Assembly (NCBI GenBank): GCA_036519715.1
Contig: DATDKW010000340.1
Location: forward strand, 30,073 to 94,072
From: Mycobacteriales bacterium
GTDB taxonomy: Bacteria; Actinomycetota; Actinomycetes; Mycobacteriales; CADCTP01
Length of the DNA: 64,000 nucleotides
Direction: 5' to 3'
Under the pieces are notes generated by a model. It did no database searches and had not been told where the DNA came from. It saw only the letters and a program-made list of their open reading frames with translations. Shown here one piece after another: positions 15,094 to 64,000 of the stretch (positions are counted from its first letter, which is position 1; every line of letters begins with the position of its first letter). Both the position numbers and the translations under genes were made by a program.

Positions 15094-15094
15094 C

Positions 15095-17436: not shown

Positions 17437-17474
17437 GCCCGCCCATGAGCCCGCCCATGAGCCTGCCCATGAGC
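17421..17474 (+). repeat. 12-bp tandem repeat (about 4.5 copies) spanning the narJ stop and narI start
   Basis: aGGAGCCCGCCC / ATGAGCCCGCCC / ATGAGCCCGCCC / ATGAGCCTGCCC / ATGAGC. It encodes MSPP-MSPP-MSLP-MS at the NarI N-terminus. Confidence 0.9.
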
Positions 17475-21711: not shown

Positions 21712-21825
21712 CCGCGACCTCCCGCTGGCGACCCGGGTCCGCGCCCACCGGCCCGGGGTCCGCGTCACGAACCGCCCACCACGATAGGGAGTCGGGGCCG
21801 GTCGCGCAGGCGACATCCGACTCCG

Positions 21826-22145
21826 CAGCGCGGTCAGGGCGATCGAGCACAGCACCGAGGCGACGAGCATGACCAGCAACCCGGCGACGAGGATCCGGCG
21901 CCGGCCGTAGTGGTCGATGAGGGCCCCGGCCAGCAGCAGCGCCGCGGCCGTCAGCAGGTGGCCGGTCACCACCCACTGCACCCCGGCAAGGCCGGCCCGC
22001 AGGTCGCGCTCGATCGCCGGCACCGCCACGGTGACGACCGAGGCGTCGACGAAGGCGACCAGGGACGCCAGGCCGGTGGCCGCGATCAGCCGGCGCCGCT
22101 GCGCAGCGCCACGTGCGGGCGCGCCGCCGCGCCGGGGACGGTCAT
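21826..22145 (-). pseudogene. Remnant of a DHA2-type MFS transporter (frameshifted N-terminus, truncated after about TM3)
   Basis: The ATG at 22145 overlaps the upstream gene's stop (ATGA), and this reading stops after 19 codons. Shifted one frame it reads ...RRRLIAATGLASLVAFVDASVVTVAVPAIERDLRAGLAGVQWVVTGHLLTAAALLLAGALIDHYGRRRILVAGLLVMLVASVLC, which is typical MFS TM1-TM3. It then degenerates into Arg-rich sequence. Confidence 0.65.
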
Positions 22146-28180: not shown

Positions 28181-28358
28181 CCGAACCGCTCAACCACCGA
28201 CGCCTGCCCCTACGTACTCGTGGCACTCGACGTGGTACCTCGATCCGGGGCTGCCGGAGATCAGGACGGTGTGTCAGAGTGAGGCGGCCGGCTGCGGGGG
28301 AGCCGACGAGTGCACGCCCACCGCCTCGTCTGTACCCCTGTCCCCGGGAAGGGCGCCG

Positions 28359-29237
28359 ATGCAGATTCCCGCCGTCTGTGAGTACGACCGTGCGACCTCG
28401 GTCGCCGAGGCACTGGAGTTGCTGAGCCGGCACGGGCCGGAAGCCCGGCTGATCGCCGGCGGCCACAGCCTGCTGCCGATGATGAAGCTGAGGCTCGCCC
28501 GCCCCGACGTCATCATCGACATCAACGACCTGGCCGAGCTCGACTTCATCAGCCGCACCGGCGACGTGCTGCGCATAGGAGCGTTGACGAGGCACGCGGC
28601 GTTGCTGGAGTCCGCCGAGGTCGGGAGCCTGTTCCCGATCGTCCACGACGCCGAGCGGGTGATCGCCGACCCGGTGGTCCGCAACCGCGGGACGCTCGGC
28701 GGGTCGCTCTGCCAGGCCGACCCCGCGGAGGACTCCACGACCGTGTGCGACGTGCTGGGTGCGGAGGTGGTCATCCGGGGCCTCGACGGCGAGCGGGTCG
28801 TCCCGATCGCAGAGTTCCACCGGGGGCCGTACGAGTCCGCCGTCGAGCAGCACGAGATCCTCACCGAGGTCCGGCTGCCGATCCGGCCGCGGTCGGGCAG
28901 CGCCTACGAGAAGGTCGAGCGACGGGTGGGGGACTGGGCGATCGCCGCGGCCGGAGCGGCGGTCTCGCTGGCCGAGGACGGCAGCATCGAGTGGGCCGGC
29001 ATCGGGCTGACAGCGGTCCGGCTCGACGGCACCGTCGGCCGGGCCGAGGAGGCCGTGCGCGGCCGGCACCCGGACGAGGAGCTCTACGCCGAGGCCGGCC
29101 GCATCGCCGCCGAGGACTGCGACCCGACCGCCGACCAGCGCGGCTCCGCGGAGTACAAGCGGCACCTCGCCGGAGAGCTGACCACGCGGGCACTGCGACG
29201 GGCCGTCGAGCGCGCCCGCGCCGGACTGGAGGGTTGA
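28359..29237 (+). CDS. coxM: Aerobic CO dehydrogenase / xanthine dehydrogenase family, FAD-binding medium subunit
   Basis: [22 protein letters not shown]...[27 protein letters not shown]...NRGTLGGSL...SAEYKRHL. This is the first gene of the M-S-L order. Confidence 0.85.
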
Positions 29238-29241
29238 GCGC

Positions 29242-29723
29242 ATGCAGGTGACGATGACCGTGAACGGCGAGTCCGTGAGCCGGGACGTCGAGCCGCGGAT
29301 GCTGCTGGTCCACTTCCTGCGCGAGCAGCTCACCCTGACCGGCACGCACTGGGGCTGCGACACCAGCAACTGCGGCGTCTGCGTGGTGCTGCTCGACGGG
29401 CGGCCGGTGAAGTCCTGCACGATCCTCGCCGTCATGGCCGGTGGGCACGAGGTGCGCACCGTGGAGGGTCTGGCCACCGACGGCCAGCTCGACCCCGTCC
29501 AGCAGGGCTTCATCGCCGAGCACGGCCTGCAGTGCGGCTTCTGCACCCCCGGGATGATGCTCACCGCGCGGGCCTTGCTCGACCGCAACCCCGACCCGTC
29601 CGAACAGGAGATCCGGGAGGCCATCTCGGGCCAGATCTGCCGCTGCACCGGCTACGCCACCATCGTCCGCTCGGTGAAGTGGGCGGCGGCGCACCCGGCC
29701 GGCGCGGACGTGGAGGTGACGTC

Positions 29724-29727
<4 letters not shown>
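29242..29727 (+). CDS. coxS: CO dehydrogenase family, [2Fe-2S] small subunit
   Basis: [17 protein letters not shown]...VKSC...[13 protein letters not shown]...CRCTGY, the two classical 2Fe-2S cysteine motifs. Confidence 0.9.
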
Positions 29728-32074
<2,347 letters not shown>

Positions 32075-32075
<1 letters not shown>

Positions 32076-48452: not shown

Positions 48453-51400
48453 TCAGGCGGGGACGGTGCTGGGACGGCTCAGTGGGAGCTCGGCCTCCAC
48501 GGTGGTGCCGGCGTCGGGGGCGGTGCGCACCGAGAACCGGCCGCCGAGTGCCTCGACCCGGTCCTGGAGCCCGAGCAGGCCCGATCCGCCGGCGGGGTCG
48601 GCGCCGCCGCGGCCGTCATCGCTCACCCGGATCCGCAGCACGGAGTCGTCCACGTCGACGTCGACGGCGACGGTGACGGTGACGGCGGTGGCGTCGGCAT
48701 GTTTGGCCGTGTTCGTCAGCGCCTCCGCGACCGCGAAGTAGGTGGCGACCTCGACCGGCTCCGGCAGCCGCCCGTCGACCCGCAGCCGCAGGTCGACCGG
48801 GACGGTGGAGCGCCGGGCCAGCGCCCCGAGCGCCGGGCGCAGCCCTCCCTCGGTCAGCGCGGCGGGGTGGATGCCGCGGGCGATCTCGCGCAGCTCGACC
48901 AACGCCCTGTTCGCCTCGGCGACCACGGCGTCCAGCCGCGCCGCCAGCTCGCCGGATCCCGGTACGGCCTCCTGGGCCAAGCGGGCCTGTAGCGCGAGGT
49001 TGGCCAGCCGCTGCTGGGCGCCGTCGTGCAAGTCCCGTTCGATGCGCCGGCGGGTCTGGTCGGCCGCGGCGACGATGCGGGCCCGCGACGCGGTCAGTTC
49101 CGCGTACAGCTGGGCGTTGTCGAGGGAGACCGTCAGCTGGGCGGCGATGAGCTTGACCGCGTCGAGCCGCTCGGCGGTGAACGCGCCGCGGATCAGGCGG
49201 TTCTCCAGCACCAGCACCGCCCGCAGGCCGCCGCGGCCCAGGATCGGCAGGGCCAGCAGGGAACAGCCGGCGACACCGGTGAAGTAGCGGTCGCGGGCGA
49301 ACCGGTCGTCGCGGGTCGCGTCGTCCACGACCAGCGGTTCCCGCACCCGCTGGACGTACCGCAGCACGGACGTCGGCGCGTCGAGCTTCCGGTCCGGCCG
49401 GGCGACCGGACCGCCCGGGGTGGGCAGCCAGTCCTGGTGGTCGTCGCTCCACAGCAGCAGGTGCACGCCGGTGGCACCGGTCATCGCGCTGAGCACCTCG
49501 ACGACGCGCGCGTGCAGGCGCTCGATGCTGGTCTCGGAACTCAGCGCCTGGGACGCGGACAGGATGCCCAGCAGGTCCAGCGTCCCCGTGGTGACCGGCG
49601 GACGGCCGGCAGCATCGGCGGAGCGGTTCCCGGGACCGGCCGCCGTGCCGCCCGGTCGCAGGGTGGGGTAGGCCCAGTCCAGCTGGGCGACCTTGGCGTC
49701 GGCGCCCCAGACGGCGTAGGCCTCCCTGGCCTGCGCGAGCAGGTCGAGACCGGCGTGGTCGGCGCCGTGGGCCAGGTGGAACCGCGCGGCCCGTTCGGTG
49801 ATCAGCGCCCGGTGCCACGGCCGCCGGCGGCCGGTGACCTCGCGCAGTGCGGCGTCGAAGGCCAGCACGGCGGCGCGGAAGTCGCCGACCGCCCAGCCCC
49901 GCTCGGCCTCGAGCCACCGCAGCAGGTGCCCGAAGTTGTCCGGTGCGTCCGCGGCCCGCGCGGCGAGCCAGCGCGTCATCTCGTCCAGCTCGGACAGCAG
50001 CTCGCCGCGCTCGGCGGCGGGTGCGGCCCGGGCCCGCTCGGCGAGGGCGAGCCCGTTCAGCAAACGGGCGATCGCGGTCGGATAGAGCCCTTTGGCGGCC
50101 CCGAGCAGATGCATGGCTGCCGCCGCATGCTGCGCCAGACCCGCCTGGTCGTCGAACACGGCCATGGCGATGGCGCGGGCGATGTGCCCGTAGAGCAGCG
50201 CCGCCGGGTTGCCGGCGTACCGGTCGACCGGGATCGGGTCACCGGCGGCCGCCGGACCGCCGCTGCCGTCGCCGCGCAGCACCTCGGCCAGCCACCGATG
50301 GCTGTCGAGCCACTGGCCGGTCTGCTCGTTGCCGGTACGGCGCACGAACGCCAGGCTGGCGTCCACCTCGGCCACGTAGCCGTCCAGCGTCGGGGCGCAC
50401 TCCAGCAGGCCGGCCACCGCCGGCTGGCAGGCGTATCCGGCCCAGGCCAGGTCCCCGCCGGCGATCAGGCCCTGCCGGGCCTCCCGAGCGGCCCGGACGG
50501 CGTTCTCGATCGGCTCGAACCAGCAGCACGCGACGCTGGCGAACGCCGAGCGCACCAGCGAGGTCTCCGGCTCGTAGGCGCGGGCCTCGCCCACGGCGAT
50601 GACCCGCCGCAGGGCCCGGTATCCCCCGGCGTAGTTCTCGCCGTGCTGGGCGGTGGCGGCGTTGGCCGCGACGCCGGTCAGGCCGATCAGGATCTGACTC
50701 GGGCCGTGCTCGAGCCAGATCCGCGGTCCCTCCAGGGTCAGCCACAGGAACAGGGGAAAGTCGGGGACGAAGTAAGCCACCGGAACGAGGGCCGCGATCA
50801 GCCGGGCGGTGGCGAGCAGCGTCGGGTCGGTGATCTCCGGACGGGCCAGCTCGTCGTCGGTGTCGGTGTGGTCCAGCCACCGGTACAGGTGGCTGATCTG
50901 GTGCTCGATCTCGGCCGGGGAACGCTCCGCCGGAACGGCGATGCCCAGCTCTCTTAGCAGGTCGACGCCCAGCGTGACGGCGTCCGCGAACCGGTTCCGG
51001 TTGGTCAGGCTGCGAACCTGGATCGCGGTCGCGTCCGCGCGCTGCGCGGCGGTGGGACCCAGCTCCATGACGGCCCGGTAATCCTCGTCCGCCTCCTCCA
51101 GGCGGCCCAGGCTGTACAGGGCGCTCTGCCGTTCGAGGTGGATCTCGACCAGCGCGGCCGTCCGGTGCCGGTCGACGAGGCGCAGTGCCGCGCCCAGCAG
51201 CGTGCTGACCAACGCGTGATCGGTGACCGCCCGGGCGTGGGCGGCCGCGCCGCGCAACAGTTCTTCCGCCCGCTGCCGTTCGGCCGGGTCGTCGATCGCG
51301 TCGGCCACGGCCAGGTACTGCTCGGCGGCGACCGCGGAGAGCGCAGGCTCCCCGGCCAGCCGCCGGGCCATGGCCAGCTGCAACTGCCGTCGCCGGGAGG

Positions 51401-53399
51401 TGTCCAGCCCGCGCAGGATCGCCTCGTGGATGCGGTCGTGGCGGAACCGCACCGCATCGTCGGCACCGGGTTCGACCACCAGGACGCCCTCGTCGAAGGC
51501 CGGCGCCAGTAGCTGTCGGACGACCTGGGCCGGTGCGCCGGTCGCCGTCTGCAGCACGGTCACCGTGGCCCGCTCGCCCAGGCAGGCCATCGCCTCCACC
51601 AGCTGCCGGGAGCGCGCCGGCAGGGCCGCACCCGGCAGTGCCAGGCTGCCGGCCTCGGGGCGGTTCAGGCGCAGGCGCACCGCGGCCGGGTCCCAGCGCC
51701 AGTCCGATGCCGTCGCGGTGAGCACGCCGTCGCGGCGCAGGCCGTTGAGCAGTTCCACGGTCTCGTACGGATTCCCGGAGGTGTGCGGTTCGATGACCGC
51801 CACCAGGTCCGCCACCGCGGCGGGGTCCAGGTGCAGCATCTCGGCGACCATGGTGACCAGGCTCGACCCGGACAGGTTGTCCAGTCGCAGGTGCCGCACG
51901 CCGGCCTGCTCCCGCCAGCGGGACAAGGGAGCGGCCAGCGGATCCGCACCGGTGCGGTCGTGCTCGCGGTGGGAGCCCACCAGCAGCAGGCCCTCGATCG
52001 GGTCCTCCTCGAGCAGCAGGTCGATGAAGCCCAGCGGGGTGCGTCCGGCCCACTGCAGGTCGTCGAGGAACAGCACGATCGGTCGACCGGGCGACGCGAC
52101 CGATCGCAGGATCTGCACGCCGTTGCGCTGTCCCCGCGCCTGCGCGGTGAGGGGGTCCCCGGGGTCGGGCGGCACGGCGAGCAGTGCGGCGTACTCCGGG
52201 AGCACCGCGGCCATCAGGCCGGCGTTGGGGCCGAGTGCCGCCCGGATCCGGTCCCGGATCGCGGCCAGCTCGTCCTCCGGCTCGGCCAGCAGCAGCCGGC
52301 TCAGCGTGCGGAACACTTGATAGACCCCGCTGGCCTCCACGTCCCGCCGGTGCTGGTCGAACTTCCCGGCGACGAACCAGCCGCCGGCACGGGTCACCAC
52401 CGGCCGCAGCGCGTCGACCAGGGCGGTCTTGCCCACCCCGGGCGCGCCGCCGACCAGCACCGCCCGGCACCGTCCGGCCAGCGCATCCGCGAACGCCACC
52501 TGCAGCGCGTCCACCTCGGCGTCCCGGCCCACCAGCTGCGACGGTGGCAGCAACCGCAGCGGGGCGTCGTGCTCGCCGACCCGCAGCGGGCCCGGGCCGG
52601 CGCTGAGCCGCTCCAGGTCGTGGAGCAGGCCCTCCGCCGACTGGTAGCGGCGGTCCGGCTCCTTCTCCAGCAGATGCAGGATGATCTCCGACAGCGGCGC
52701 CGGCAGGGCCGGGTTCACCTCCGCCGGCGGCGCCGGCACCCGGGCCAGGTGATCATGGATCAGCCGCAGCGGATCGCCGGAACCGAACGGCGGCCGGCCC
52801 GTGGCCAGCTCGTACAGCGTCGCGCCCACCGCGTACAGGTCGGCGCGCTGGTCGACGGAGCGACCGGTGCGCCCGGTCTGCTCCGGCGCCAGATACGCCA
52901 GCGTGCCGGTGATCTCGGTGTGGTGCAAGAACTCCGGACGGATCTCGGCCAGCGACATCGCCGAACCGAACCCCACCAGAGCCGGCGCGCCGTCCCCGGA
53001 CACCACGATGTTGGCCGGCGCGATGTCCCGGTGCAGCACACCCCGGCGGTGCATCCCCGCCACCGCCCGGGCCAGCGCCGACGCCAGCCCGACCAGGACG
53101 TCGAGGTCCAGCGGCGTCGCCACATCGGCCAGGCTCGTGCCGCCCAGGTCGGCCAGCACGACCGAGCCCCGGTATTGCGGCTCGTCCACCAGCTGAACGA
53201 CCCCCGGAACCCCGCGCACCCGCTCCAGCATCGCCAGCTCGAGCCGCAGCCGGCGCTCCGCCTCCGGCCCCAGGAACTCCTTGCGCACAACGGTACGTCC
53301 CGGCAGGACGACCCGGGTCACACGGGTCCGGCCGGTCGTGCCCAGCGTCTCGGCGGCGCCGTACGGATCTGGGTCGGACTGCACGTCACGGGTGACCAT
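48453..53399 (-). CDS. Multidomain sensor: Ser/Thr-kinase-like domain + P-loop (STAND) NTPase + helical repeats + GAF + HisKA_3/HATPase_c histidine kinase
   Basis: Kinase-like domain at aa 20-265 (VVRKEF, HRDIAPANIVV, LVGFGSA, LAYLAPEQ). Walker A GGAPGVGKTALV near aa 317. GAF-like region near aa 1190-1340. H-box ERDLHDGAQQRL, N-box EALTNTAKHA, G-box DDGRGG...GSGLLGLQDRV. Confidence 0.9.
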   Translation of the reverse strand: MVTRDVQSDPDPYGAAETLGTTGRTRVTRVVLPGRTVVRKEFLGPEAERRLRLELAMLERVRGVPGVVQLVDEPQYRGSVVLADLGGTSLADVATPLDLDVLVGLASALARAVAGMHRRGVLHRDIAPANIVVSGDGAPALVGFGSAMSLAEIRPEFLHHTEITGTLAYLAPEQTGRTGRSVDQRADLYAVGATLYELATGRPPFGSGDPLRLIHDHLARVPAPPAEVNPALPAPLSEIILHLLEKEPDRRYQSAEGLLHDLERLSAGPGPLRVGEHDAPLRLLPPSQLVGRDAEVDALQVAFADALAGRCRAVLVGGAPGVGKTALVDALRPVVTRAGGWFVAGKFDQHRRDVEASGVYQVFRTLSRLLLAEPEDELAAIRDRIRAALGPNAGLMAAVLPEYAALLAVPPDPGDPLTAQARGQRNGVQILRSVASPGRPIVLFLDDLQWAGRTPLGFIDLLLEEDPIEGLLLVGSHREHDRTGADPLAAPLSRWREQAGVRHLRLDNLSGSSLVTMVAEMLHLDPAAVADLVAVIEPHTSGNPYETVELLNGLRRDGVLTATASDWRWDPAAVRLRLNRPEAGSLALPGAALPARSRQLVEAMACLGERATVTVLQTATGAPAQVVRQLLAPAFDEGVLVVEPGADDAVRFRHDRIHEAILRGLDTSRRRQLQLAMARRLAGEPALSAVAAEQYLAVADAIDDPAERQRAEELLRGAAAHARAVTDHALVSTLLGAALRLVDRHRTAALVEIHLERQSALYSLGRLEEADEDYRAVMELGPTAAQRADATAIQVRSLTNRNRFADAVTLGVDLLRELGIAVPAERSPAEIEHQISHLYRWLDHTDTDDELARPEITDPTLLATARLIAALVPVAYFVPDFPLFLWLTLEGPRIWLEHGPSQILIGLTGVAANAATAQHGENYAGGYRALRRVIAVGEARAYEPETSLVRSAFASVACCWFEPIENAVRAAREARQGLIAGGDLAWAGYACQPAVAGLLECAPTLDGYVAEVDASLAFVRRTGNEQTGQWLDSHRWLAEVLRGDGSGGPAAAGDPIPVDRYAGNPAALLYGHIARAIAMAVFDDQAGLAQHAAAAMHLLGAAKGLYPTAIARLLNGLALAERARAAPAAERGELLSELDEMTRWLAARAADAPDNFGHLLRWLEAERGWAVGDFRAAVLAFDAALREVTGRRRPWHRALITERAARFHLAHGADHAGLDLLAQAREAYAVWGADAKVAQLDWAYPTLRPGGTAAGPGNRSADAAGRPPVTTGTLDLLGILSASQALSSETSIERLHARVVEVLSAMTGATGVHLLLWSDDHQDWLPTPGGPVARPDRKLDAPTSVLRYVQRVREPLVVDDATRDDRFARDRYFTGVAGCSLLALPILGRGGLRAVLVLENRLIRGAFTAERLDAVKLIAAQLTVSLDNAQLYAELTASRARIVAAADQTRRRIERDLHDGAQQRLANLALQARLAQEAVPGSGELAARLDAVVAEANRALVELREIARGIHPAALTEGGLRPALGALARRSTVPVDLRLRVDGRLPEPVEVATYFAVAEALTNTAKHADATAVTVTVAVDVDVDDSVLRIRVSDDGRGGADPAGGSGLLGLQDRVEALGGRFSVRTAPDAGTTVEAELPLSRPSTVPA

Positions 53400-56055: not shown

Positions 56056-56292
56056 CGGCGGTCAGCAGCCCGGGCGGCAGCTGTCCAGGGCCATCACCCG
56101 ACCGCTGCACCAGAAGGTCGACTCATCCATGGGCACACGGTCGCGCCGACGAGCGCCCGTTCGACACCGGCACCCCCCGGGGTAGCGCCCGGGGGTTGCC
56201 GGTCCCCGATCACCACATGTGGTGAGGACGGCTCACCACATCGCTCCCTACCTTCCAGCCAGCGGGTCACCGGCCGGAAGGAGGCGAACGAC

Positions 56293-56556
56293 ATGACCGA
56301 CGTACCGAAGGGCTCCAGCCACGGCTCCGGCCGGTACGAGTTCCGGGTCCGCGGCCACCTGGACACCCGCTGGGCCGCCTGGTTCGACGGGCTCTCGCTC
56401 ACCCGGGAGCGCGACGGAACCACCGTCCTCGCCGGCGTGATCGCCGATCAGGCCGCGCTGCACGGGGTTCTGCGCAAGCTCGCCGACCTCGGGCTGCCGC
56501 TGGTCTCCGTGACTCCGGCCGCGGCCGACCCGCCGACCACCACCCATCCTTGCTGA
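56293..56556 (+). CDS. Small hypothetical protein (87 aa)
   Basis: The ATG is preceded by GGAAGGAGG. Sequence: YEFRVRGHLDTRWAAWFDGLSLTRERDGTTVLAGVIADQAALHGVLRKLADLGLPLVSV. I recognise no family. Confidence 0.6.
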   Translation: MTDVPKGSSHGSGRYEFRVRGHLDTRWAAWFDGLSLTRERDGTTVLAGVIADQAALHGVLRKLADLGLPLVSVTPAAADPPTTTHPC

Positions 56557-56576
56557 CCGACCCACAGGAGACCGCC

Positions 56577-57329
56577 ATGTCCACTACCGTGTCCGCCGCC
56601 ACCACCACCCCGACCATGGACGCCGGCCCCAGGCGCCGGATGGGCCCGATGAGGAAGGTCGCCCTCGCCGGCGGCATCGCCTACCTCGTCACGTTCGCCG
56701 CCTCGATACCGCAACTGGCGCTGCTCGCCGACGTCGTCGACGATCCGACCGGCTACATCAGCAGCCCACGGAGCAACGCCGCGGTGCTGTGGGGTTCCTG
56801 GTTGGAGGTCATCACCGCCATCGCCTGCGTGGCGACCGCCGTCGCGCTCTACCCGGTCACCAGGCGGGTCAGCCGGACCGCCGCGATCGGGTTCGTCACC
56901 TCCCGGGTCGTGGAGGCCACGCTCATTCTCGTCGGCGTCCTGAGCCTGCTGTCCGTCGTGACCCTGCAGGACCATTTCGCCGGCGCCACCGGGGCCCAGG
57001 CGGACGCGCTGGGAGTCACCGGTGAGGCGCTGATCGCGATGCGCCAGTGGACCTTCCTGCTGGGACCGGGCCTCATGGCCGGGATCAACGCCCTGTTCCT
57101 GGCCACCGCGATGTACCGGGGGCGGCTGGTCCCCCGCGTCATCCCCGTCATCGGACTCGTCGGAGCGCCCGTCATCCTCATGTCGGCGACCGCGACGATG
57201 TTCGGCGGATGGGATCAGGTCTCCACCGTCGGCGCGCTCTGTGCGCTGCCCGTCGCCGTCTGGGAGTTCTCGCTGGGCGTGTGGCTGACCGTCAAGGGCT
57301 TCACCACGCCGGCCGGCGATCCCCGCTGA
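56577..57329 (+). CDS. DUF4386-type membrane protein
   Basis: ALAGGIAYLVTFAASIP...GSWLEVITAIACVATAVALYPV...GFVTSRVVEATLILVGVLSLL...LGPGLMAGINALFLATAMYRGRLVPR. Confidence 0.7.
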   Translation: MSTTVSAATTTPTMDAGPRRRMGPMRKVALAGGIAYLVTFAASIPQLALLADVVDDPTGYISSPRSNAAVLWGSWLEVITAIACVATAVALYPVTRRVSRTAAIGFVTSRVVEATLILVGVLSLLSVVTLQDHFAGATGAQADALGVTGEALIAMRQWTFLLGPGLMAGINALFLATAMYRGRLVPRVIPVIGLVGAPVILMSATATMFGGWDQVSTVGALCALPVAVWEFSLGVWLTVKGFTTPAGDPR

Positions 57330-57348: not shown

Positions 57349-60114
57349 TCACCGGCGATGCTGCCCACGCAGCAGGTGCAGTTCCTGCCCCCGCCGTACG
57401 GCAGCGCGGCGGTTGGTCACCCCGAGCTTGGCGTAGATCCGCTTGGTGTGGGTGCGCAGGGTGTTGAGGCTGACGGTGAGCTGCCGGGCGATGTCCGGTC
57501 CGTCGAGGTCGGACGCCAGCAGGCGCAGGACGTCGAGCTCCCGGTCGCTCAGCGGGTCGACCAGCGGCTGAGCGGACGGCGGGCCCTCCGGCCGGGCGGT
57601 CGTGGCGGACAGCAGCCGCCGCAGGTAGCCGCCGGCGGCATGCTCCCGGCGAAGGAGGAGCCGGAGCACCACGGCCATGGGCGGTCCTTCGTCGGCGAAG
57701 ACCCGGATGTGGCCCTCGGGCTCGGCCAGCGTGACGGCCCGGCCGAGTGCGCCCAGCGCGGCGGCCCGCTCGCCCCGGGCGTACTCGGCGAGCGCCTGGA
57801 GCACGAGGACCTCGATGACGGTGCCCCCGCGGCCGCCGTCCTCCGCCGCGGTGAGCAGGCGGCCCAGCAGCCCGGCCGCGTCGTCGAGGTCCGCGCGGGC
57901 GAGCAGCAGCCGGGCCAGGGTGACATGCTCGTACTCGCGCAGGTACGACAGGTCGTCCACAGTGGACAGCTGACGCTCCCGCACCCAGGCGTCCGCGAGC
58001 GCCGGCTCCTGCCGGCGTATCCACAGCCGGGCCCGGACGGCGGGGACGGGACGCACGTCCGGCGAGTAGTCGCCGTCGTAGACGCGGTCCGCCTCGTCGA
58101 TCAGCTGCAGCGCGGCGTCGAGGTCGCCTTCGGCCTCCCGCAACCGGGCCAGGACGAGCCGCGACCGGTACGGGTTCTGCGGCAGCCCGTTGCGCTCCCC
58201 CAAGCGCCGGGCGATGGCGAGCTGCTCGGCCGCACCGGCCAGGTCGTCCCGGTCGACCAGGATCTCCGCGACACCGACGTGCATGTCGGCCGTTCCCCGC
58301 AGCGGACCACCCGGCTGGGCGCCGGCCAGGTCGAGTGCCTGCCGGTAGGTGCTCAGGGCGTCCCCGAGGCGGCCCTGGGTCCGGCGGAGGTGGCCCAGGG
58401 TGACGCTGCAGCCGAGGACGTCGGAGACGAAGCCGACCCTGGCCAGCCCGGCGGCGGACTCGGTGTAGGCGGCGTGCGCACCGGCGAGGTCGCCGCCGGC
58501 CCAGGACGCCAGCCCGGCCAGCGCGCCGGCGGCGGCCCGGACGAGCTCATTACCGGCCGGAGCGAGGGCCAGCGCCTTCCCGGCCCGCGCGACGGTGACG
58601 TCGAGCTCGCCGTGGAACAGCGCGAGCGCCGCCCGGTACATCTCGATCGTGGCCGGAAGAGCCCGGTACCCGTCCTCGTCCACGACGACCAGGCCGGGCG
58701 GCGGCCGCTCGGGCCAGGAGCCGCCCGGCGGGCGCAGTGACCGCTCGATGGCGGACAGCCGCTGGTCGACCGTGGCAAAGTCCGACATCTGGGCCAGGGT
58801 GCCGACGAAGGCGACCCCCAGCACCGGCCGGCGCCGCAGCACGTCGTCCGGCAGCTCCCGTACCCACCGGGCGAGCTCGGCTTCGCGCCGTTCCCGGCGC
58901 AGCGCCGGGATGGTGAGCTCCATGAGATCCGCGGCACCGTCGAGGTCGCCGCCGGCCAGCGCGTGCCGGACGGCGGCGGCCGGGTCGCCGTGGTCCCGGA
59001 GCCAGACGCCGGCCCGCCGGTGCAGCTCGGGAACCCGGGTCGGCTGCTGCTGCAGCAGATGCGCACGCAGCACGTCGGCGAACAGGTGGTGGTAGCGATA
59101 CCACCGCCGGGCATCGTCGAGCGGGACGAGGAACAGGTTGGCCCGCTCGAGCGCGACCAGTCGGGCCGCGCCCCCGTCCTGACCGGTGACGGCATCGCAC
59201 AAGGGGCCGCTGAGCCGTTCCAGTATCGAGGTGCTGAGCAGGAAGTCGCGGACGTCGGCCGGCTGTCGCGTCAGCACCTCCTCGGCCAGGTAGTCCACGA
59301 CGAACCGGTCATCACCGGCGAACGCGGCCACCACCGCGCCGGGGTCCTGGCGGTCCTGCAAGGACAGACCCGCGAGTTGGAGGGCGGCCGCCCATCCTTC
59401 CGTACGCTCGGCCAGGGTGGTGACGTCATCGGCGGCCAGCGACAGACCCATCGGTCCGGCGAGGAAGGCGGCGGCCTCCTCCGCGGTGAACCGGAGGTCG
59501 GCCGCACGGATCTCCACCAGCTCACCGCGCACGCGGAGCCGGGCCAGCGGCAGCGGCGGGTCGGCGCGGGTGGCGAGGACGAGGTGGACATGTTCCGGGA
59601 GGTGATCGAGGAGGAACGCCATCCCGTCGTGGACGTCCCGCGACTCGATGAGGTGGTAGTCGTCCAGCACCAGCACGACGTCGCACGGCAGCCGTTGCAG
59701 GTCGTTCAGGAGGCTGACGAGAACCGCGTCGGTCGAGGGCTGGGAGGACCGCAGCAGGCTCAGGGCCGTCGTGCCGACCGCGTCCGCGGCCTCGCCCCCG
59801 CTGTCGATCGCCTCCCGCAGCGCCGTGGCGACGTACGTCCAGAAGATGCGCTGGTCGTCATCGCGGTCGTCCAGCGAGACCCACGCCACCGCCGGGCGTT
59901 CGGCAGGCGCCTGCTCGGCGACCTGTGCCACCCAGTGGGACAGCAAGGTCGTCTTGCCGAACCCGGCCGGCGCGGACACCAGAGTCAGCCGCGACCGTAC
60001 GGTCCGGCCCAGCCGCTCACTCAACCGAGGCCGCAAGACCCACTCCTGGCGGCGGCGGGGAACCCGGGTCTTGGCCATCAGCAACGGATCTCCCACGCCC
60101 GTCACCTCCAGCAC
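57349..60114 (-). CDS. MalT-type LuxR-family (LAL) ATP-dependent transcriptional regulator
   Basis: KTRVPRRRQEWVLRPRL, Walker A VSAPAGFGKTTLL, Walker B VLVLDDYHLI, TPR-like repeats, and a C-terminal LuxR HTH (LSDRELDVLRLLASDLDGPDIARQLTVSLNTLRTHTKRIYAKLGVTNRRAAV). Confidence 0.9.
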   Translation of the reverse strand: MLEVTGVGDPLLMAKTRVPRRRQEWVLRPRLSERLGRTVRSRLTLVSAPAGFGKTTLLSHWVAQVAEQAPAERPAVAWVSLDDRDDDQRIFWTYVATALREAIDSGGEAADAVGTTALSLLRSSQPSTDAVLVSLLNDLQRLPCDVVLVLDDYHLIESRDVHDGMAFLLDHLPEHVHLVLATRADPPLPLARLRVRGELVEIRAADLRFTAEEAAAFLAGPMGLSLAADDVTTLAERTEGWAAALQLAGLSLQDRQDPGAVVAAFAGDDRFVVDYLAEEVLTRQPADVRDFLLSTSILERLSGPLCDAVTGQDGGAARLVALERANLFLVPLDDARRWYRYHHLFADVLRAHLLQQQPTRVPELHRRAGVWLRDHGDPAAAVRHALAGGDLDGAADLMELTIPALRRERREAELARWVRELPDDVLRRRPVLGVAFVGTLAQMSDFATVDQRLSAIERSLRPPGGSWPERPPPGLVVVDEDGYRALPATIEMYRAALALFHGELDVTVARAGKALALAPAGNELVRAAAGALAGLASWAGGDLAGAHAAYTESAAGLARVGFVSDVLGCSVTLGHLRRTQGRLGDALSTYRQALDLAGAQPGGPLRGTADMHVGVAEILVDRDDLAGAAEQLAIARRLGERNGLPQNPYRSRLVLARLREAEGDLDAALQLIDEADRVYDGDYSPDVRPVPAVRARLWIRRQEPALADAWVRERQLSTVDDLSYLREYEHVTLARLLLARADLDDAAGLLGRLLTAAEDGGRGGTVIEVLVLQALAEYARGERAAALGALGRAVTLAEPEGHIRVFADEGPPMAVVLRLLLRREHAAGGYLRRLLSATTARPEGPPSAQPLVDPLSDRELDVLRLLASDLDGPDIARQLTVSLNTLRTHTKRIYAKLGVTNRRAAVRRGQELHLLRGQHRR

Positions 60115-60374
60115 CGTTCCGGCGTCCTATGCCCTGCGCGGACAACGACCCATCCTCGCGCACGTGGCGGTCCTGGTCGGCGACGTCGCAGCCGAAGATC
60201 GGGCTGCTCGGCGAGGCGGAGCAGAATGTGGCCGTAGTCGGTGAGGAAGGTCCACTCGGATTCGACCACGAGCCGTGATATCCCCGGAGGTCCGACTTGT
60301 GCGTAGCATCGTGCCCGGCGGTGTCCCGGGCGGCGGGCATCGCCCCATCACCCCCGACCGGGCAGAGGGCAGGC

Positions 60375-61154
60375 ATGACGACGGAGACAGCACCCGGCGA
60401 CACCGGCGTCGGCCCGGCCCGCCTCGGCGGGCTCCGGCGCTGGAACCTGGGCCTGGCGCTGCTGCATGCCGTCCAGGCCGTCGCCGTCCTCCTTCTCGCC
60501 AGCGGCTTCGCGATCACGGTGACCTCGTCGTACCCGACCGGGCCGCCCGGCACCGACGCCCCCGCGCCGCAAGGGCTGATCGACGTGCGGGTCGGTGCCG
60601 CGGTCGCGCTGTTCCTCGCGCTGGCCGCCGTCGACCACCTCCTGACCGCCACGGTGCTGCGGGACCGCTACGAGCGGGGACTGCGCGGCGGGATCAACCG
60701 GTTCCGGTGGATCGAATACTCCCTCAGCGCCACGGTCATGGTGCTGCTGATCGCCTCGTACGCCGGGCTGACCGACATCACCACCGTCATCGCGATCGCC
60801 GGTGCCAACATCGGCATGATCCTCTTCGGCTGGCTGCAGGAGGCGATGAACCCACCCGGCCGGCGGACCACGACCATGCTGCCGTTCTGGTTCGGCACCG
60901 TCGTCGGTCTCACGCCCTGGATCGCGATCGCCGTCAATCTCGCCGGGGCCGCCACCGTGCCCGGCTTCGTCTACGGCATCTTCGTCTCTCTCGCCGTGTT
61001 CTTCTCCAGCTTCGCCGTCAACCAGTGGTTGCAGTACCGGCGGATCGGACCGTGGGCCGACTACGCGTTCGGCGAGAAGAGCTACCTCGTCCTCAGCCTG
61101 GCCGCGAAGTCCGCACTGGCCTGGCAGGTGTTCGCCGGCTCCCTCGCCGGCTGA
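60375..61154 (+). CDS. Heliorhodopsin (7-TM retinal protein, inverted-topology rhodopsin family)
   Basis: The product is collinear with heliorhodopsin signature blocks as I recall them: RRWNLGLALLHAVQAVAVLLLA, FLALAAVDHLL, NRFRWIEYSLSATVMVLLIA (Glu114 at 60714-60716), MILFGWLQE, MLPFWFG, VPGFVYGIFVSLAVFF, GEKSYLVLSLAAKSALAWQVFAGSL (Lys245 at 61107-61109). Confidence 0.85.
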   Translation: MTTETAPGDTGVGPARLGGLRRWNLGLALLHAVQAVAVLLLASGFAITVTSSYPTGPPGTDAPAPQGLIDVRVGAAVALFLALAAVDHLLTATVLRDRYERGLRGGINRFRWIEYSLSATVMVLLIASYAGLTDITTVIAIAGANIGMILFGWLQEAMNPPGRRTTTMLPFWFGTVVGLTPWIAIAVNLAGAATVPGFVYGIFVSLAVFFSSFAVNQWLQYRRIGPWADYAFGEKSYLVLSLAAKSALAWQVFAGSLAG

Positions 61155-61337
61155 CCGCCCACCGCCGGTGCCGCGCCGCGGGGAGCAGCTCATGCCTCCG
61201 ACCCGGCGCCGGGTCACTTCCCGATGTCGCGCGGGCGGCGGGTTGGTGCCTCACCGGCGAGAAGCCTGATCCCGGCCGCCACGGCGCGCCGAAGCCGCCG
61301 GCCGGGTGACCCCGGTCGGCGGCTCGGTCGCTCCCCT

Positions 61338-61895
61338 TCAGATCAGCCAGCGGTTCTGCCGGACGACCGGCTGGTGCTTCCACCACCGGCCCAGCCCGAA
61401 GGTGTCACCCGCGTGCACCAGCGCCAGCCCGATCACCACCAGCGCACCGATGATGTGATCGTCCACGATCGGGTTGTTCTCCGGCGGCAGCACCACCGAC
61501 CACATCATCAGGTACAGCAGCGCCCCGGAGACCGCCGCGACCCGCATCCCGATCCCCAGCATCAGCGCCACACCGATTCCCACCAGCGCCATCATGAACA
61601 GCCAGTCCGCCCAGCCCGCGCCGGCGATGTTCTTGTAGAAGCTCTCGAACGGCCCGTCCGCCGAGTTGGCCAGGAAGCCCTTGGTCGGCGATCCGCCGTT
61701 GATCCAGGACTTCGCCGAGGGGGTCGCGTAGCCGAACCCGAACAGCTTGTCCAGGAACGCCCACAGGAACGTGAACCCGACCACGACCCGCAGCGCGGCG
61801 AAGACCCCGGCCGCCCACCGCCGCTCCCGCGGTGTCTGCTCCACCGTCGCCCCGACCAGCCCGCGCGGCGACCGTCCCTCATACGTCGTAGTCAT
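61338..61895 (-). CDS. DoxX-family membrane protein
   Basis: AALRVVVGFTFLWAFLDKLFG...GSPTKGFL...ADWLFMMALVGIGVALMLGIGMRVAAVSGALLYLMMW. Confidence 0.8.
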   Translation of the reverse strand: MTTTYEGRSPRGLVGATVEQTPRERRWAAGVFAALRVVVGFTFLWAFLDKLFGFGYATPSAKSWINGGSPTKGFLANSADGPFESFYKNIAGAGWADWLFMMALVGIGVALMLGIGMRVAAVSGALLYLMMWSVVLPPENNPIVDDHIIGALVVIGLALVHAGDTFGLGRWWKHQPVVRQNRWLI

Positions 61896-62119
61896 CTTCC
61901 GCCTCCTGACCCGTACCCCCGTCTCAGCTCAAGCTTCCGGCCTCGCGATGCTCCACGCCGGAGTCCAAAGTCCCGACTCCACCGGGCCCCCCGTCACAGC
62001 CCATTGCCACGAAGGGCGTGCGGGCCGTGCGGGTGTGCGAAATGATGCCGTCACAGAACCCCTTGCCGCCGGGCCGTCGCGCGCGCTGGAATCGACGGAA
62101 CGAGACGAAGGAGAGCGCC

Positions 62120-63034
62120 ATGGACGGACGCGGCCTCGGCCTGCTGGTCGGCATCGACGGGTCCGAGGGCGGCGACCGGGCCCTGGACTGGGCCGCACGC
62201 GCGGCGGCGGCCCAGGACAGCAGCATCACGGTCGCGTACGTCATCAGCGGCTTCGGGCCGTCCGACCTGCCCACGACAGCCGGGCTCCGGAACCTGGACC
62301 TGCGTGCCGCCCAGGCCATCGTCGACACCGGGGTGCAGCGCGCCGGGCAGGCGACCCCCGGGCTCCCGGTCACGGGCCGCCGCGTCGAAGGCGACCCGGC
62401 CACCGAGCTGATCACGCTGTCCGCCGACGCCGACCAGGTGGTGCTCGGCTCCCGCGGCCACGGCGGCTTCGCATCGCTGCTGGTGGGATCCGTGGCCACG
62501 AAGGTGGCCGGGCACGCGGCCTGCCCGGTGGTCGTCGTGCGGGACGACGCCCATCCGACCGGACCGGTCGTCATCGGCATCGACGGCTCCGACCGCGGCG
62601 AAGCCGCCCTGCGCTACGGCTTCTCCTACGCCGACCGCCACCGGCTGCCCGTGCGGGGACTGCACGTCTACCACGTCGACCCACCGATGGCGCGCTACCT
62701 CACTGAAGCCGCCGGCGCCGAGGTCGCCGGCACCGAGCTCGCCGGCACCGACGCCGCCGGCGCCGAAGCCACGGCCGCCGAAGCCGCCCGGCGGAGCTCC
62801 GAGCAGCTCGTCGGCGCGCGGCTGCGGAGCTGGCAGGAGAAGTATCCGGACGTCGTCGTCGAGGCGGAGACCGACATCGGCTCCCCCGCCCGCCACCTTG
62901 TCGACCTCAGTACGACGGCGAGCCTCCTCGTCGTCGGCCACCGCGGACACGGCCGCCTCGCCGGCCTCGTCCTCGGCTCGGTCAGCCAAGCGGTCCTGAC
63001 CCACGCCCACTGCCCCGTCGTCATCACCCGGTGA
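62120..63034 (+). CDS. Tandem universal stress protein (two UspA domains)
   Basis: The ATG follows GAAGGAG. Domain 1: LLVGIDGSEGGDRALDWAA...VLGSRGHGGFASLLVGSVATKVAGHAACPVVVV. Domain 2: VVIGIDGSDRGEAALRY...LLVVGHRGHGRLAGLVLGSVSQAVLTHAHCPVVI. Confidence 0.9.
   Translation: MDGRGLGLLVGIDGSEGGDRALDWAARAAAAQDSSITVAYVISGFGPSDLPTTAGLRNLDLRAAQAIVDTGVQRAGQATPGLPVTGRRVEGDPATELITLSADADQVVLGSRGHGGFASLLVGSVATKVAGHAACPVVVVRDDAHPTGPVVIGIDGSDRGEAALRYGFSYADRHRLPVRGLHVYHVDPPMARYLTEAAGAEVAGTELAGTDAAGAEATAAEAARRSSEQLVGARLRSWQEKYPDVVVEAETDIGSPARHLVDLSTTASLLVVGHRGHGRLAGLVLGSVSQAVLTHAHCPVVITR
62711..62770 (+). repeat. In-frame 15-bp tandem repeat x4 inside the second Usp domain
   Basis: GCCGGCGCCGAGGTC / GCCGGCACCGAGCTC / GCCGGCACCGACGCC / GCCGGCGCCGAAGCC, encoding AGAEV-AGTEL-AGTDA-AGAEA. 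Confidence 0.85.
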
Positions 63035-63243
63035 CCTCGGGCACGGAGCTGGTCCGGATCTCGGACGCCGAGGGGCGCGTACTCGGGGCAGATTGAGGAC
63101 CGAGGGCGGAGGAGGCCGCGGAGGGGACATCTGACCCTGGGCCACACCGCGGCATGCCGGTGAGGTGGACGCGAGCCGGCAGGTGCTCTCGCTGAGTGCC
63201 TGTCGGAGAGGATGTTTCAGGAGGTGTCCGGCAGGATGGCGGC

Positions 63244-64000
63244 ATGCTGGAGGTCGAGATCGCCGCACGTCCGTTGGCGGAGCTGAACGGAATCCTCAAC
63301 CCGGAGCAGACGGAGCGGCTGCGGGTCGCCGCGGACCGGGCTGCGTCCGATCTGTCGGGACGGACGGTGTGGAACGTCAGCTCCACGGCGACCGGCGGCG
63401 GGGTCGCGGAGATGCTGCACACCCTGCTCGGCTACGTGACCGGTGCCGGCATCCGGACCAGGTGGCTGGTCCTGGATGGCGACAGCGCCTTCTTCGCGGC
63501 CACCAAGCGGCTGCACAATGCGATTCACGGCCTGGGACAGGTGCCGGCGCTCGACGACGCCGACCGGGCCGCGTACGACCGGGTGCTCGCCCGCACGGCT
63601 CCAGAGCTCCTGGAGCACGTGGGACCGCGGGACCTGGTCCTTCTGCACGACCCCCAGACGGCCGGACTGGTCGAGCCGCTGCACCGGGCCGGCATCCCGG
63701 TCGTGTGGCGATCGCACATCGGTCTGGACGTGCGGACCGCGACCTCGGACTCGGCCTGGGACTTCCTCAGAAAGCGCATGGAGTCGGCGGACGCCGTCGT
63801 CTTCTCCCGCCGCCAGTACGCCCCGTCCTGGGTGGCCGGAGACCGGCTGTGGGTGATCCCGCCGTCCATCGATCCCCTGTCGGCGAAGAACCGGCCCATT
63901 GCGGCAGAGGACCGCATCCGGCTGCTGACCGAGGCCGGGCTGCTCACCGGCGGCGGAGCGCAGCCCGGTCAGATCGTCCACGGTGCGCCGCCGCCGGCAC
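63244..64000 (+). CDS. GT4 glycosyltransferase of the trehalose-synthase (TreT)-like group; 3' end lies outside the window
   Basis: The frame is open from ATG 63244 to the window end, so it is absent from the ORF track. Sequence: VWNVSSTATGGGVAEMLHTLLGY...RWLVL.G...FF..TKRLHNAIHG...LLHDPQTAGL...VVWRSHIG...IPPSIDPLSAKN, the pattern of TreT-like GT4 enzymes. Confidence 0.65.
   Translation, partial: MLEVEIAARPLAELNGILNPEQTERLRVAADRAASDLSGRTVWNVSSTATGGGVAEMLHTLLGYVTGAGIRTRWLVLDGDSAFFAATKRLHNAIHGLGQVPALDDADRAAYDRVLARTAPELLEHVGPRDLVLLHDPQTAGLVEPLHRAGIPVVWRSHIGLDVRTATSDSAWDFLRKRMESADAVVFSRRQYAPSWVAGDRLWVIPPSIDPLSAKNRPIAAEDRIRLLTEAGLLTGGGAQPGQIVHGAPPPA

Follow-up and report, generated by a model that had tools for sequence, protein, structure and literature searches.

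Heliorhodopsins (HeRs) are light-sensing, retinal-binding membrane proteins, and thousands of actinobacterial homologues belong to this family. Several structures are available of 48C12, the HeR of a freshwater actinobacterium (PDB 6SU3, 6SU4, 6UH3, and 9LJJ). The features that define HeRs, a Glu107 counterion and a Ser237 in place of the Asp212 of type-1 rhodopsins, have been described together with a list of structurally defined 48C12 residues (PMC7049168). Some HeRs regulate a partner protein, as is the case in the pairs AbHeR-glutamine synthetase (PMC9529153), TfHeR-photolyase (PMC9769723), and OcHeR-OmrDE ABC transporter (PMC11109279). In the OcHeR study, basic cytoplasmic loops were tied to partner binding. 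The same work lists ten recurrent partner groups, namely GS, NAD+ synthetase, photolyase, MerR, TerC, ABC transporter, SDR, alpha/beta-hydrolase, DUF2177, and DUF2238, without LuxR, Usp, or DoxX, and approximately 61 % of its 448 HeRs lack a co-transcribed neighbour (PMC11109279). In HeR-only genomes, as in the vicinity of HeRs, the blh gene is rare (10.1101/2021.02.16.431466). For BagHR, the HeR of Blastococcus aggregatus, an absorption maximum of 559 nm was measured and no pumping was seen (Tarlachkov et al. 2024, bioRxiv 10.1101/2024.05.16.594530). According to the initial annotation of the DNA analysed here, HeRs have not been shown to transport ions. This is outdated for viral HeRs, as proton transport by V2HeR3 is reported in PMC12873467 and in PMC11109279.

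The HeR gene studied here is located in a window of 64,000 nucleotides, the whole stretch of DNA that was analysed, from a MAG with a GC content of 73 %. It occupies positions 60375..61154 on the plus strand and specifies 259 amino acids followed by a stop codon, an assignment made with Pfam, NCBIfam, PDB, GenBank, and a structural model. The protein translated from the ATG at 60375 is 100 % identical to a GenBank protein; the identical sequence has already been deposited as "heliorhodopsin HeR [Mycobacteriales bacterium]". A Shine-Dalgarno-like AGAGGG is present a few bases 5' of the ATG. The GC3 (0.93) and GC2 (0.55) of the open reading frame are the same as those of the adjoining genes, which marks it as coding and compositionally native. 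Judged by its sequence, the gene is intact and an unremarkable member of its family.

The product matches Pfam PF18761 (Heliorhodopsin), its sole Pfam family, with an E value of 7.9e-99 and 330.3 bits (cut-off 26.7 bits) over profile positions 1-242 of 242. It scores 276.9 bits against the NCBIfam equivalog NF038020 'heliorhodopsin HeR', for which the cut-off is 100 bits. In a sequence search of the PDB, 48C12 (E 2e-67) and TaHeR (E 7e-55) came out on top and the next, unrelated match had an E value of 0.03. The naming of this gene as a heliorhodopsin gene in the initial annotation is thus fully supported: the profiles, the key residues, the predicted fold, and the topology all uphold it.

Alignment with 48C12 (49.6 % identity over 236 aligned residues) places the four residues that had been singled out earlier exactly where they were expected. 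His31 (codon 60465..60467, plus strand, as for the other three) corresponds to 48C12 His23, the TM-A histidine of the Schiff-base cavity, and is invariant in all 50 clade members. By residue mapping and clade alignment, His88 (60636..60638) is the TM-B histidine His80. Glu114 (60714..60716), in FRWIEYSLS, is the equivalent of the Schiff-base counterion Glu107, while Lys245 (61107..61109), in SLAAKSALAWQ, matches Lys241, the retinal Schiff-base lysine in TM-G, and is likewise invariant in 50 of 50 homologues. A single Glu counterion is thus present, and Ser241 (48C12 S237) is found in place of the type-1 Asp212. The residues of the Schiff-base cavity, H31, H88, N24, N108, Y99, Y115, R111, E156, and E234, are all identical to their 48C12 equivalents (His23, His80, Asn16, Asn101, Tyr92, Tyr108, Arg104, Glu149, and Glu230). 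Overall, 27 of the 29 structurally defined 48C12 residues are the same in this protein, among them K241, E107, S237, S111, H23, H80, R104, E149, E230, P172, and W246, and both differences are clade-wide. Of the two counterion-stabilizing serines, S111 is kept as S118 and S76 is lost, its place being taken by Ala84 in the whole clade. In comparison with 48C12, L227 of the hydrophobic barrier is A231 here, and F203 at the fenestration is A207. In an alignment of 50 clade homologues with 69-88 % identity, 82 columns are invariant. The retinal site is shown in silico to be complete, with Lys245, Glu114, Ser241, Ser118, His31, His88, and the polar network of Arg111, Glu156, and Glu234.

An AF2 model of the product (pLDDT 87, pTM 0.80) contains seven helices and, in the A-B loop, a beta-hairpin with strands at residues 46-51 and 66-72; Pro172 in helix E of 48C12 is kept as P181. 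The predicted protein is thus shown in silico to be a 7-TM protein with the HeR-specific hairpin in the first extracellular loop. With this model, the ten best Foldseek matches were all solved HeRs (6su3, 6is6, and 9ljj among them) with TM scores of 0.82-0.87 and an rmsd of around 2 A, the best being 6su3 of 48C12 (TM 0.87, rmsd 2.0 A). Type-1 rhodopsins followed with E values of approximately 0.03-0.3 and TM scores of approximately 0.5-0.6. Using the helix boundaries of the model and the positive-inside rule, 14 Lys and Arg residues were counted on the side of the N-terminus and the B-C, D-E, and F-G loops versus one on the opposite side. This indicates an inverted topology with a predicted cytoplasmic N-terminus, in line with the inside N-terminus that had been expected. 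The protein has the 7-TM retinal-protein architecture in common with type-1 rhodopsins such as sensory rhodopsin II and the proton and chloride pumps, but the similarity in fold is distant, there is no match at the sequence level, and its topology is inverted; Ser241 replaces the conserved Asp212 of type-1 rhodopsins, and the counterion is a single Glu. It is not a member of the type-1 group. As an identity for the product, both type-1 rhodopsins and another 7-TM family were rejected on the basis of the gaps in profile and fold scores.

HeRs of Geodermatophilus and Modestobacter, three of which were compared, are 73-74 % identical to the window HeR. They belong to the Geodermatophilaceae, a different family or lineage, whose HeRs, including BagHR, carry the same S76A substitution; the likeness to BagHR was taken from the sequences of its relatives. 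Relatives that can be cultured and carry an HeR include Williamsia, Nakamurella sp. UYEF19, Modestobacter roseus, and Nocardioides tweenelious. The Geodermatophilaceae HeR genes are likewise orphans, with a diverse and patternless vicinity and mostly in the opposite orientation to their neighbours (10.1101/2024.05.16.594530). By analogy with these approximately 73 %-identical relatives, the window HeR would fall in subfamily 1 or group A of the published classifications.

The gene upstream of the HeR gene is divergent, with a gap of 260 bp, and the downstream one is convergent, with a gap of 183 bp. As the genes around the HeR gene alternate in strand, there is no operon and the HeR gene is monocistronic. 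In this it differs from the partner-regulating HeRs, in which the partner gene lies in the HeR operon. The divergent gene (57349..60114, minus strand) specifies a MalT-type LAL regulator with an AAA/STAND part, a WHD/TPR_MalT part, and a GerE HTH (Pfam TPR_MalT 208 bits, GerE, and AAA), as had been annotated; its score against the NCBIfam MalT model, 409 bits, is below the cut-off. The 260-bp region between the two genes (60115..60374) is without a consensus promoter, a strong operator-like palindrome, or a copy of the palindromic box discussed below. A sigma-70 promoter scan of 60000-62100 found none, a type of scan that is uninformative at 73 % GC, and the only terminator-like match in this part of the window falls within the DoxX-like gene. 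A search for repeats in both intergenic regions flanking the HeR gene found no convincing operator, all matches being weak and GC-rich (72-82 % complementary).

The gene that is convergent with the HeR gene (61338..61895, minus strand) had been called doxX. It does encode a membrane protein, but the DoxX label is weak: the score of 20.8 bits is below the Pfam gathering cut-off (GA) of 23.6 bits, and the protein has no match in NCBIfam or the PDB. Divergent from it lies the gene of a tandem two-domain universal stress protein (Usp; 62018..63034, plus strand; 168 bits in two stretches), which had been recognized correctly. The same holds for the nitrate reductase and CO dehydrogenase genes of the window, which were located as narGHJI (10993-18260) and CoxM/CoxL-like genes (28269-32075), while the NDH-2 could be supported at the level of Pyr_redox_2 only. 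Genes of the crt or blh families were, as noted before, not found among the 38 window ORFs that were scanned; their absence nearby is the published norm for HeRs. None of the ten published partner groups is adjacent to the HeR gene at this locus.

Very probably, the window HeR is an intact actinobacterial HeR of the 48C12 type that stands alone between two gene modules, each conserved on its own, and whose adjacency to them is incidental. From what is known of characterized relatives, it would bind all-trans retinal and absorb green to yellow light (559 nm in the case of BagHR, a relative with the S76A substitution), and it would have a slow photocycle without ion pumping. Either uptake from the surroundings or synthesis by genes in another part of the genome probably supplies the retinal. 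The protein belongs to the same family as the HeRs that bind GS, photolyase, or an ABC transporter and its cytoplasmic loops are strongly basic (14 Lys and Arg); by analogy, it may be a light-dependent regulator that acts through protein contacts of these loops, in which case its partner would be encoded away from the HeR gene. Regulation by such contacts has been demonstrated only where the genes of HeR and partner lie in one operon, which is not the case for the window HeR. The two flanking modules would be that of LAL, a small ORF, and DUF4386 on one side and that of the DoxX-like protein and Usp on the other, their position next to the HeR gene being a lineage-specific accident of gene order.

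In a preprint, HeRs are viewed as two-antenna light harvesters in which an exogenous carotenoid bound in a lateral fenestration passes energy to retinal (10.1101/2025.11.27.691015), which would make light capture rather than partner regulation the role of the protein. The fenestration motif consists, in 48C12 numbering, of aromatic residues at 162 and 206, non-bulky ones at 166 and 210, and Gly169, and the window HeR has F171 and F210 (48C12 F162 and F206), T175 and A214, and Gly178 at the predicted carotenoid site. F171, G178, and F210 are invariant in all 50 clade members, and the bulky Phe203 of 48C12, said to narrow the fenestration (PMC7049168), is Ala207 here. However, the preprint uses docking and sequence statistics, and as by its own count 91 % of all HeRs have the motif, its presence does not set the window HeR apart. 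Moreover, there is no known energy-conserving output, BagHR of the same clade having shown no pumping, and an antenna is compatible with a sensory or regulatory role and does not replace it. As the role of this protein, light harvesting is therefore considered unlikely.

The initial annotation took the gene context to be informative and proposed a light-input module, made up of the HeR, the divergent LAL, the DoxX-like protein, and the tandem Usp, by which light is coupled to redox or dormancy physiology, with LAL controlling the HeR gene through the 260-bp region, for example, or the HeR signalling to its neighbours. The divergent layout with a common intergenic region is real, the window contains redox-related genes (narGHJI, a CoxL/M-like dehydrogenase, and a Pyr_redox_2 flavoprotein), and surveys have found genes for redox or oxidative stress and for signalling to be enriched near HeRs in general (PMC8612252; 10.1101/2021.02.16.431466). 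However, narGHJI and the cox genes are 28-50 kb away from the HeR gene, and the strand alternation leaves no operon. The presence of a LAL beside the HeR gene is also unsurprising, as regulators of the STAND/LuxR type are very dense in the window: four of the LAL/SARP type and one kinase-STAND among approximately 38 genes, or around one in eight.

The gene order was compared from three anchors. Using the HeR gene, 80 related loci from outside the genus were surveyed, 70 of which extended at least 1 kb and 56 at least 3 kb on both sides. A LAL was present in a single locus, at 7.4 kb from the HeR gene, on the same strand and with seven ORFs in between, and was for these reasons rejected as a case of synteny. 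Usp was also seen once, at a distance of approximately 9 kb, while DoxX-like, DUF4386, and NDH-2 genes were each found in none of the 80. The HeR gene stood alone in 48 of the 71 loci that could be evaluated. The closest usable relatives, found on short metagenome contigs without a taxonomic label, have HeRs that are 80-88 % identical; at these five loci the neighbours are entirely different (IS110 and PadR; Nramp; a fatty-acid desaturase and HisKA; a hydrolase, DinB, and TetR), and the arrangement of LAL, DoxX-like, and Usp genes occurs in none. Starting from the DoxX-like gene, HeR was found in 0 of 80 related loci and Usp within 600 bp in 16 of them. Judged from these loci, the DoxX-like gene is recurrently paired with Usp and not with HeR.

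The third anchor was LAL. Six loci with orthologues of 67-74 % identity were compared; none contains an HeR gene, and in five of them LAL adjoins a gene for DUF4386 with 69-83 % identity. In the window, this DUF4386 membrane protein is encoded at 56550..57329 on the plus strand (PF14329, 161 bits). It is preceded and overlapped by an unannotated ORF of 87 amino acids (56293..56556, plus strand) with a GGAAGGAGG ribosome-binding site. The small ORF product matched no Pfam family; it is 64-67 % identical to the products of small ORFs upstream of DUF4386 in two of the related loci (L169 and L170). A perfect 16-bp palindrome, TCACCACATGTGGTGA, at 56210..56225 is a candidate operator of the small-ORF/DUF4386 unit and recurs unchanged at the equivalent place in L169, L170, and a third locus, L086. 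It is unique in the window at up to three mismatches (0.12 expected by chance): the HeR promoter region has no copy of it, nor has any other part of the window. By this comparison, LAL is part of a separate conserved module with DUF4386 and not with HeR.

As conserved partners other than HeR were found for both LAL and the DoxX-like gene, and as the arrangement fails from all three anchors, the light-input module has already been refuted as a conserved system, and in any form it is very improbable. Related genomes do not conserve the neighbourhood, which is the very outcome that the initial annotation had named as fatal to functional linkage, and the idea therefore fails. Since they are not found beside HeR genes in related genomes, the LAL, DoxX-like, and Usp neighbours say nothing about HeR function, and a redox, dormancy, or LuxR-type partner of HeRs should not be deduced from how the genes are ordered here. 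The HeR protein itself is a textbook family member, and the useful outcome is a negative one. The comparison from three anchors independently confirms that the majority of HeR genes are orphans (Kim et al. 2024) and that HeR neighbourhoods in high-GC terrestrial actinomycetes are not informative about function (Tarlachkov et al. 2024). To settle the physiological role of stand-alone HeRs, more than genome context will be needed.

Regulator genes that are divergent from their targets are frequent in bacteria, and the 260-bp shared region would be compatible with cross-regulation of LAL and HeR. A lineage-specific rearrangement might have set an orphan HeR gene head-to-head with a MalT-type STAND regulator gene, the two later becoming coupled via this region; HeR expression may then depend on LAL, or LAL may receive a light input that depends on HeR. 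If true, a promiscuous photoreceptor would have been rewired recently and in this lineage only, but such a coupling is very improbable. Frame-shifted or fragmented HeR genes in three Geodermatophilaceae strains, from which weaker selection was inferred (Tarlachkov et al., 10.1101/2024.05.16.594530), and a variable context with an IS110 transposase beside an 87 %-identical relative, which suggests a mobile or dispensable gene, could make the window gene a weakly selected or decaying, functionless remnant, but this reading is hardly credible and was rejected on account of the intact, full-length ORF, the conserved residues with merely clade-wide differences, the invariant columns, the native codon composition, and the ribosome-binding site.

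When the 1,097 ORFs of all 80 HeR loci were clustered de novo, no neighbour family was present in more than seven loci. The most recurrent families, at seven loci or fewer, are by their motifs OmpR-type response regulators, ABC ATPases, and SDRs, which only faintly recalls the two-component and SDR associations described in the literature.

The open reading frame (ORF) at 60375-61154(+), proposed in the initial annotation to encode a heliorhodopsin (HeR), translates without interruption into 259 amino acids followed by a stop codon. Its sole Pfam match was Heliorhodopsin PF18761 (E 7.9e-99; 330.3 bits, gathering cut-off 26.7; profile positions 1-242 of 242), and the NCBIfam equivalog NF038020 was matched with 276.9 bits (cut-off 100). 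When all PDB sequences were searched, the top matches were the structurally solved reference HeR 48C12 (E 2e-67) and a Thermoplasmatales HeR (E 7e-55), whereas the best unrelated match had an E value of 0.03. The longest ORF in this frame would begin at a TTG at 60297. An AGAGGG Shine-Dalgarno-like element precedes the ATG at 60375, and the product starting there is 100% identical to the 259-aa GenBank entry 'MAG TPA: heliorhodopsin HeR [Mycobacteriales bacterium]'. The proposed identity is correct, yet it was previously known and already annotated. As GC3 (0.93) and GC2 (0.55) resemble those of all neighbours, the ORF is coding and compositionally native.

Structurally important residues of 48C12, taken from the crystal-structure paper (PMC7049168), were mapped onto the query, and 27 of the 29 were identical. 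Those retained include His23 and His80 (H31 and H88 in the query), Arg104 (R111), Glu107 (E114), Ser111 (S118), Glu149 (E156), Pro172 (P181), Glu230 (E234), Ser237 (S241), Lys241 (K245) and Trp246 (W250). The codons of E114 (60714-60716) and K245 (61107-61109) agree exactly with those given in the initial annotation. The two residues that differ from 48C12 are S76, replaced by A84, and L227, replaced by A231. Neither change is peculiar to the query, since in an alignment of homologues with 69-88% identity A84 is invariant and A231 is found in 46 of 50. Tarlachkov et al. recorded S76A for HeRs of Geodermatophilaceae and found that BagHR absorbs maximally at 559 nm and does not pump (10.1101/2024.05.16.594530). 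Sequenced HeRs of this family, from Geodermatophilus and Modestobacter, are 73-74% identical to the query.

An AlphaFold2 model built on the homologue alignment was confident (mean pLDDT 87, pTM 0.80) and has seven long helices and a beta-hairpin in the A-B loop (46-51/66-72). In a Foldseek search of the PDB with this model, the best ten matches were all solved HeRs (TM 0.82-0.87, rmsd 2.0-2.5 Å, E 1e-15 to 8e-18), after which type-1 rhodopsins followed with a jump in E to about 0.03 and TM of about 0.5-0.6; this excludes that another 7-TM family matches better. Using the helix boundaries of the model, 14 Lys and Arg residues were counted on the N-terminus and the B-C, D-E and F-G loops, against one on the A-B, C-D and E-F loops and the C-terminus. 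The positive-inside rule therefore predicts a cytoplasmic N-terminus, the inverted HeR topology that had been expected. At the level of in-silico evidence, the HeR is intact: its retinal site is complete, its fold is that of the family and its N-terminus is predicted to lie inside.

Judging from characterised relatives, the protein would bind all-trans retinal at K245 with E114 as the counterion, absorb green to yellow light, cycle slowly and not pump. The earlier statement that no ion transport has been shown for HeRs is slightly out of date, as one report describes proton transport in viral HeRs (PMC12873467). By analogy with the HeRs whose partner is GS, photolyase or an ABC transporter, it would modulate a partner protein through its basic cytoplasmic loops, which would be encoded elsewhere than in the adjoining genes. 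Binding of an exogenous carotenoid antenna at the lateral fenestration, as proposed for HeRs in a preprint (10.1101/2025.11.27.691015), is a compatible but unlikely alternative. The fenestration motif is present in the query (F171/F210, T175/A214, G178), but 91% of HeRs carry it by the preprint's own count, so that it has no discriminating value. The remark that the window holds no blh or crt genes was borne out, a profile scan of its 38 ORFs revealing no family for the synthesis of carotenoids or retinal. Such an absence is usual for HeRs according to the literature: blh is rare among their neighbours, and the two co-occur mostly where the genome carries another rhodopsin (10.1101/2021.02.16.431466).

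The initial annotation also suggested a light-input module, tied to redox or dormancy physiology, of HeR, the divergent MalT-type STAND/LuxR regulator (LAL, 57349-60114(-)), the DoxX-like gene (61338-61895(-)) and the tandem universal stress protein gene (Usp, 62018-63034(+)). All 38 window proteins were compared by tblastn with 80 genomic loci, all from Actinomycetota, with HeRs 63-77% identical to the query; flanks on both sides were at least 1 kb in 70 of the 80, at least 3 kb in 56 and at least 9 kb in 44. HeR, the positive control, was matched in 80 of 80, LAL and Usp in one locus each, and the DoxX-like protein, DUF4386 (56550-57329(+)) and the Pyr_redox_2 protein ('NDH-2') in 0 of 80. 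The single LAL match (L006, 49% identity) lies 7.4 kb upstream of HeR on the same strand with seven intervening ORFs, and the single Usp match (L061, 30% identity) about 9 kb downstream; both were rejected as synteny, being unlike the window arrangement. When the 1,097 ORFs from these loci were clustered de novo, no family reached more than 7 of the 80. The modest recurrent families, recognized by sequence motifs, were generic: response regulators, ABC ATPases and SDRs. A crude operon criterion left HeR on its own in 48 of the 71 loci that could be evaluated; in 20, both neighbours were on the opposite strand, as in the window. Strand alternates gene by gene around the window HeR, so there is no operon there.

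The closest available relatives, HeRs of 80-88% identity on JGI metagenome contigs, had neighbours entirely unlike those of the window: an IS110 transposase and PadR; Nramp; a fatty-acid desaturase and a two-component pair; or an alpha/beta-hydrolase, DinB, glyoxalase and TetR. Of the window proteins, HeR alone matched these loci. The IS110-family transposase lies about 1 kb upstream of an 87%-identical HeR on two independent contigs (L081, 7800-8942; L082, 117-1259), which hints that this clade's HeR genes lie in regions prone to rearrangement.

LAL orthologues are numerous at 62-76% identity, and six with usable context (67-74% identity) were sampled with 6-8 kb of flank on each side. HeR was found in none of the six within these flanks. 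DUF4386 directly adjoined LAL in five, at 69-83% identity to that of the window; in the sixth, the contig stops after a 49-aa fragment. A small ORF precedes DUF4386 in three of the loci, and those of L169 and L170 are 64-67% identical to an unannotated 87-aa ORF of the window (56293-56556) without a Pfam family. Upstream of this small ORF/DUF4386 unit lies a perfect 16-bp palindrome, TCACCACATGTGGTGA (56210-56225), which is identical in L169, L170 and L086, whose LALs share only 67-72% identity. It occurs once in the 64-kb window with up to three mismatches allowed and is absent from the LAL-HeR intergenic region, where the best 12-mer has four mismatches, as in a control intergenic region. 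LAL, the small ORF and DUF4386 form a conserved three-gene module that does not include HeR, and the palindrome is a candidate operator of this module, whose regulon is uncharacterised. The LAL of L086 has beside it a GT4 glycosyltransferase and glycoside hydrolases of MGH1-like and alpha-amylase-like type, neighbours that would be in keeping with a MalT-type regulator acting in a sugar-related process. In the window, 63196-63999(+) encodes a TreT-type trehalose synthase (GT4) that continues past the window end.

The label 'DoxX' is weak: the 20.8 bits of the Pfam match fall under the cut-off of 23.6, and no match was obtained in NCBIfam or the PDB. None of 80 metagenomic loci with relatives of 51-80% identity contained HeR; the flank on a given side exceeds 1.2 kb in only about half of these loci, and many are too short to show neighbours. 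A Usp-domain gene was present in 19 of the 80, within 600 bp in 16, whereas the HeR loci, 1.29 Mb in all, gave a single Usp match. DoxX-like and Usp genes thus form a recurrent pair of variable orientation that is independent of HeR.

Since the neighbourhood is not conserved in related genomes, the proposed functional linkage fails the refutation test set in the initial annotation itself; the window HeR is a stand-alone gene between two independently conserved modules. A recent, lineage-specific coupling of HeR to the adjoining LAL is very improbable, nothing having been found in its support. Of the 448 HeRs that Kim et al. classified according to their neighbours, only 38.6% appear co-transcribed with one; LuxR/MalT, Usp and DoxX are not among the ten groups of partners that recur (GS, NAD+ synthetase, photolyase, MerR, TerC, ABC transporter, SDR, alpha/beta-hydrolase, DUF2177 and DUF2238) (PMC11109279). 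Bulzu et al. called HeR contexts diverse and 'promiscuous', with an enrichment in two-component and redox genes (PMC8612252). For this locus, the test from three anchors (HeR, LAL and DoxX-like) leads to the same conclusion as that of Tarlachkov et al. on patternless HeR neighbourhoods.

Intact HeRs with all key residues (at about 10001-10770 in each locus) were also present in the Nocardiaceae isolate genomes of Williamsia (L049, L056, L076) and Rhodococcus sp. AW25M09 (L070). Members of the Nocardiaceae contain mycolic acids and have an outer mycomembrane. HeRs have been described as restricted to monoderms, for which a recent preprint gives access to exogenous carotenoids as the reason. In the literature searched, no mention was found of heliorhodopsin and mycomembrane together, and mycolata go unmentioned in Bulzu et al.

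Four LAL/SARP-type STAND regulators are encoded among the approximately 38 window genes (6852-9932, 18925-22029, 23144-25894 and 57349-60114): one BTAD+AAA_16 (SARP-like), two paralogous AAA_16+GerE and the MalT-type LAL. To these comes a 1,648-aa protein (48453-53399) combining Ser/Thr kinase, AAA_16, GAF, HisKA_3 and HATPase domains. This density of STAND-type signalling ATPases is unusual, and that HeR adjoins one of them is therefore unremarkable. Residues 2-62 of the longest ORF at 18925-22029(-), a LuxR-STAND protein, match MFS_1 transporter helices, probably because of an over-extended start or as a remnant of a disrupted transporter. The 687-aa protein at 2431-4494(-) has no Pfam match at E<=0.001. 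The nitrate reductase genes narGHJI (10993-18260) and the CoxM/CoxL-like genes (28269-32075) are present as annotated, but lie 28-50 kb from HeR. The CoxL-like large subunit (29532-32075(+); companion ORF 28269-29237(+)) contains VAYACSFRV, in agreement with the signature AYXCSFR at the active site of form-I aerobic CO dehydrogenases; the label 'CO dehydrogenase' is therefore probably right. The small subunit CoxS probably lies in the gap from 29237 to about 29727, where the over-extended 5' end of the CoxL ORF would have kept it from being picked.
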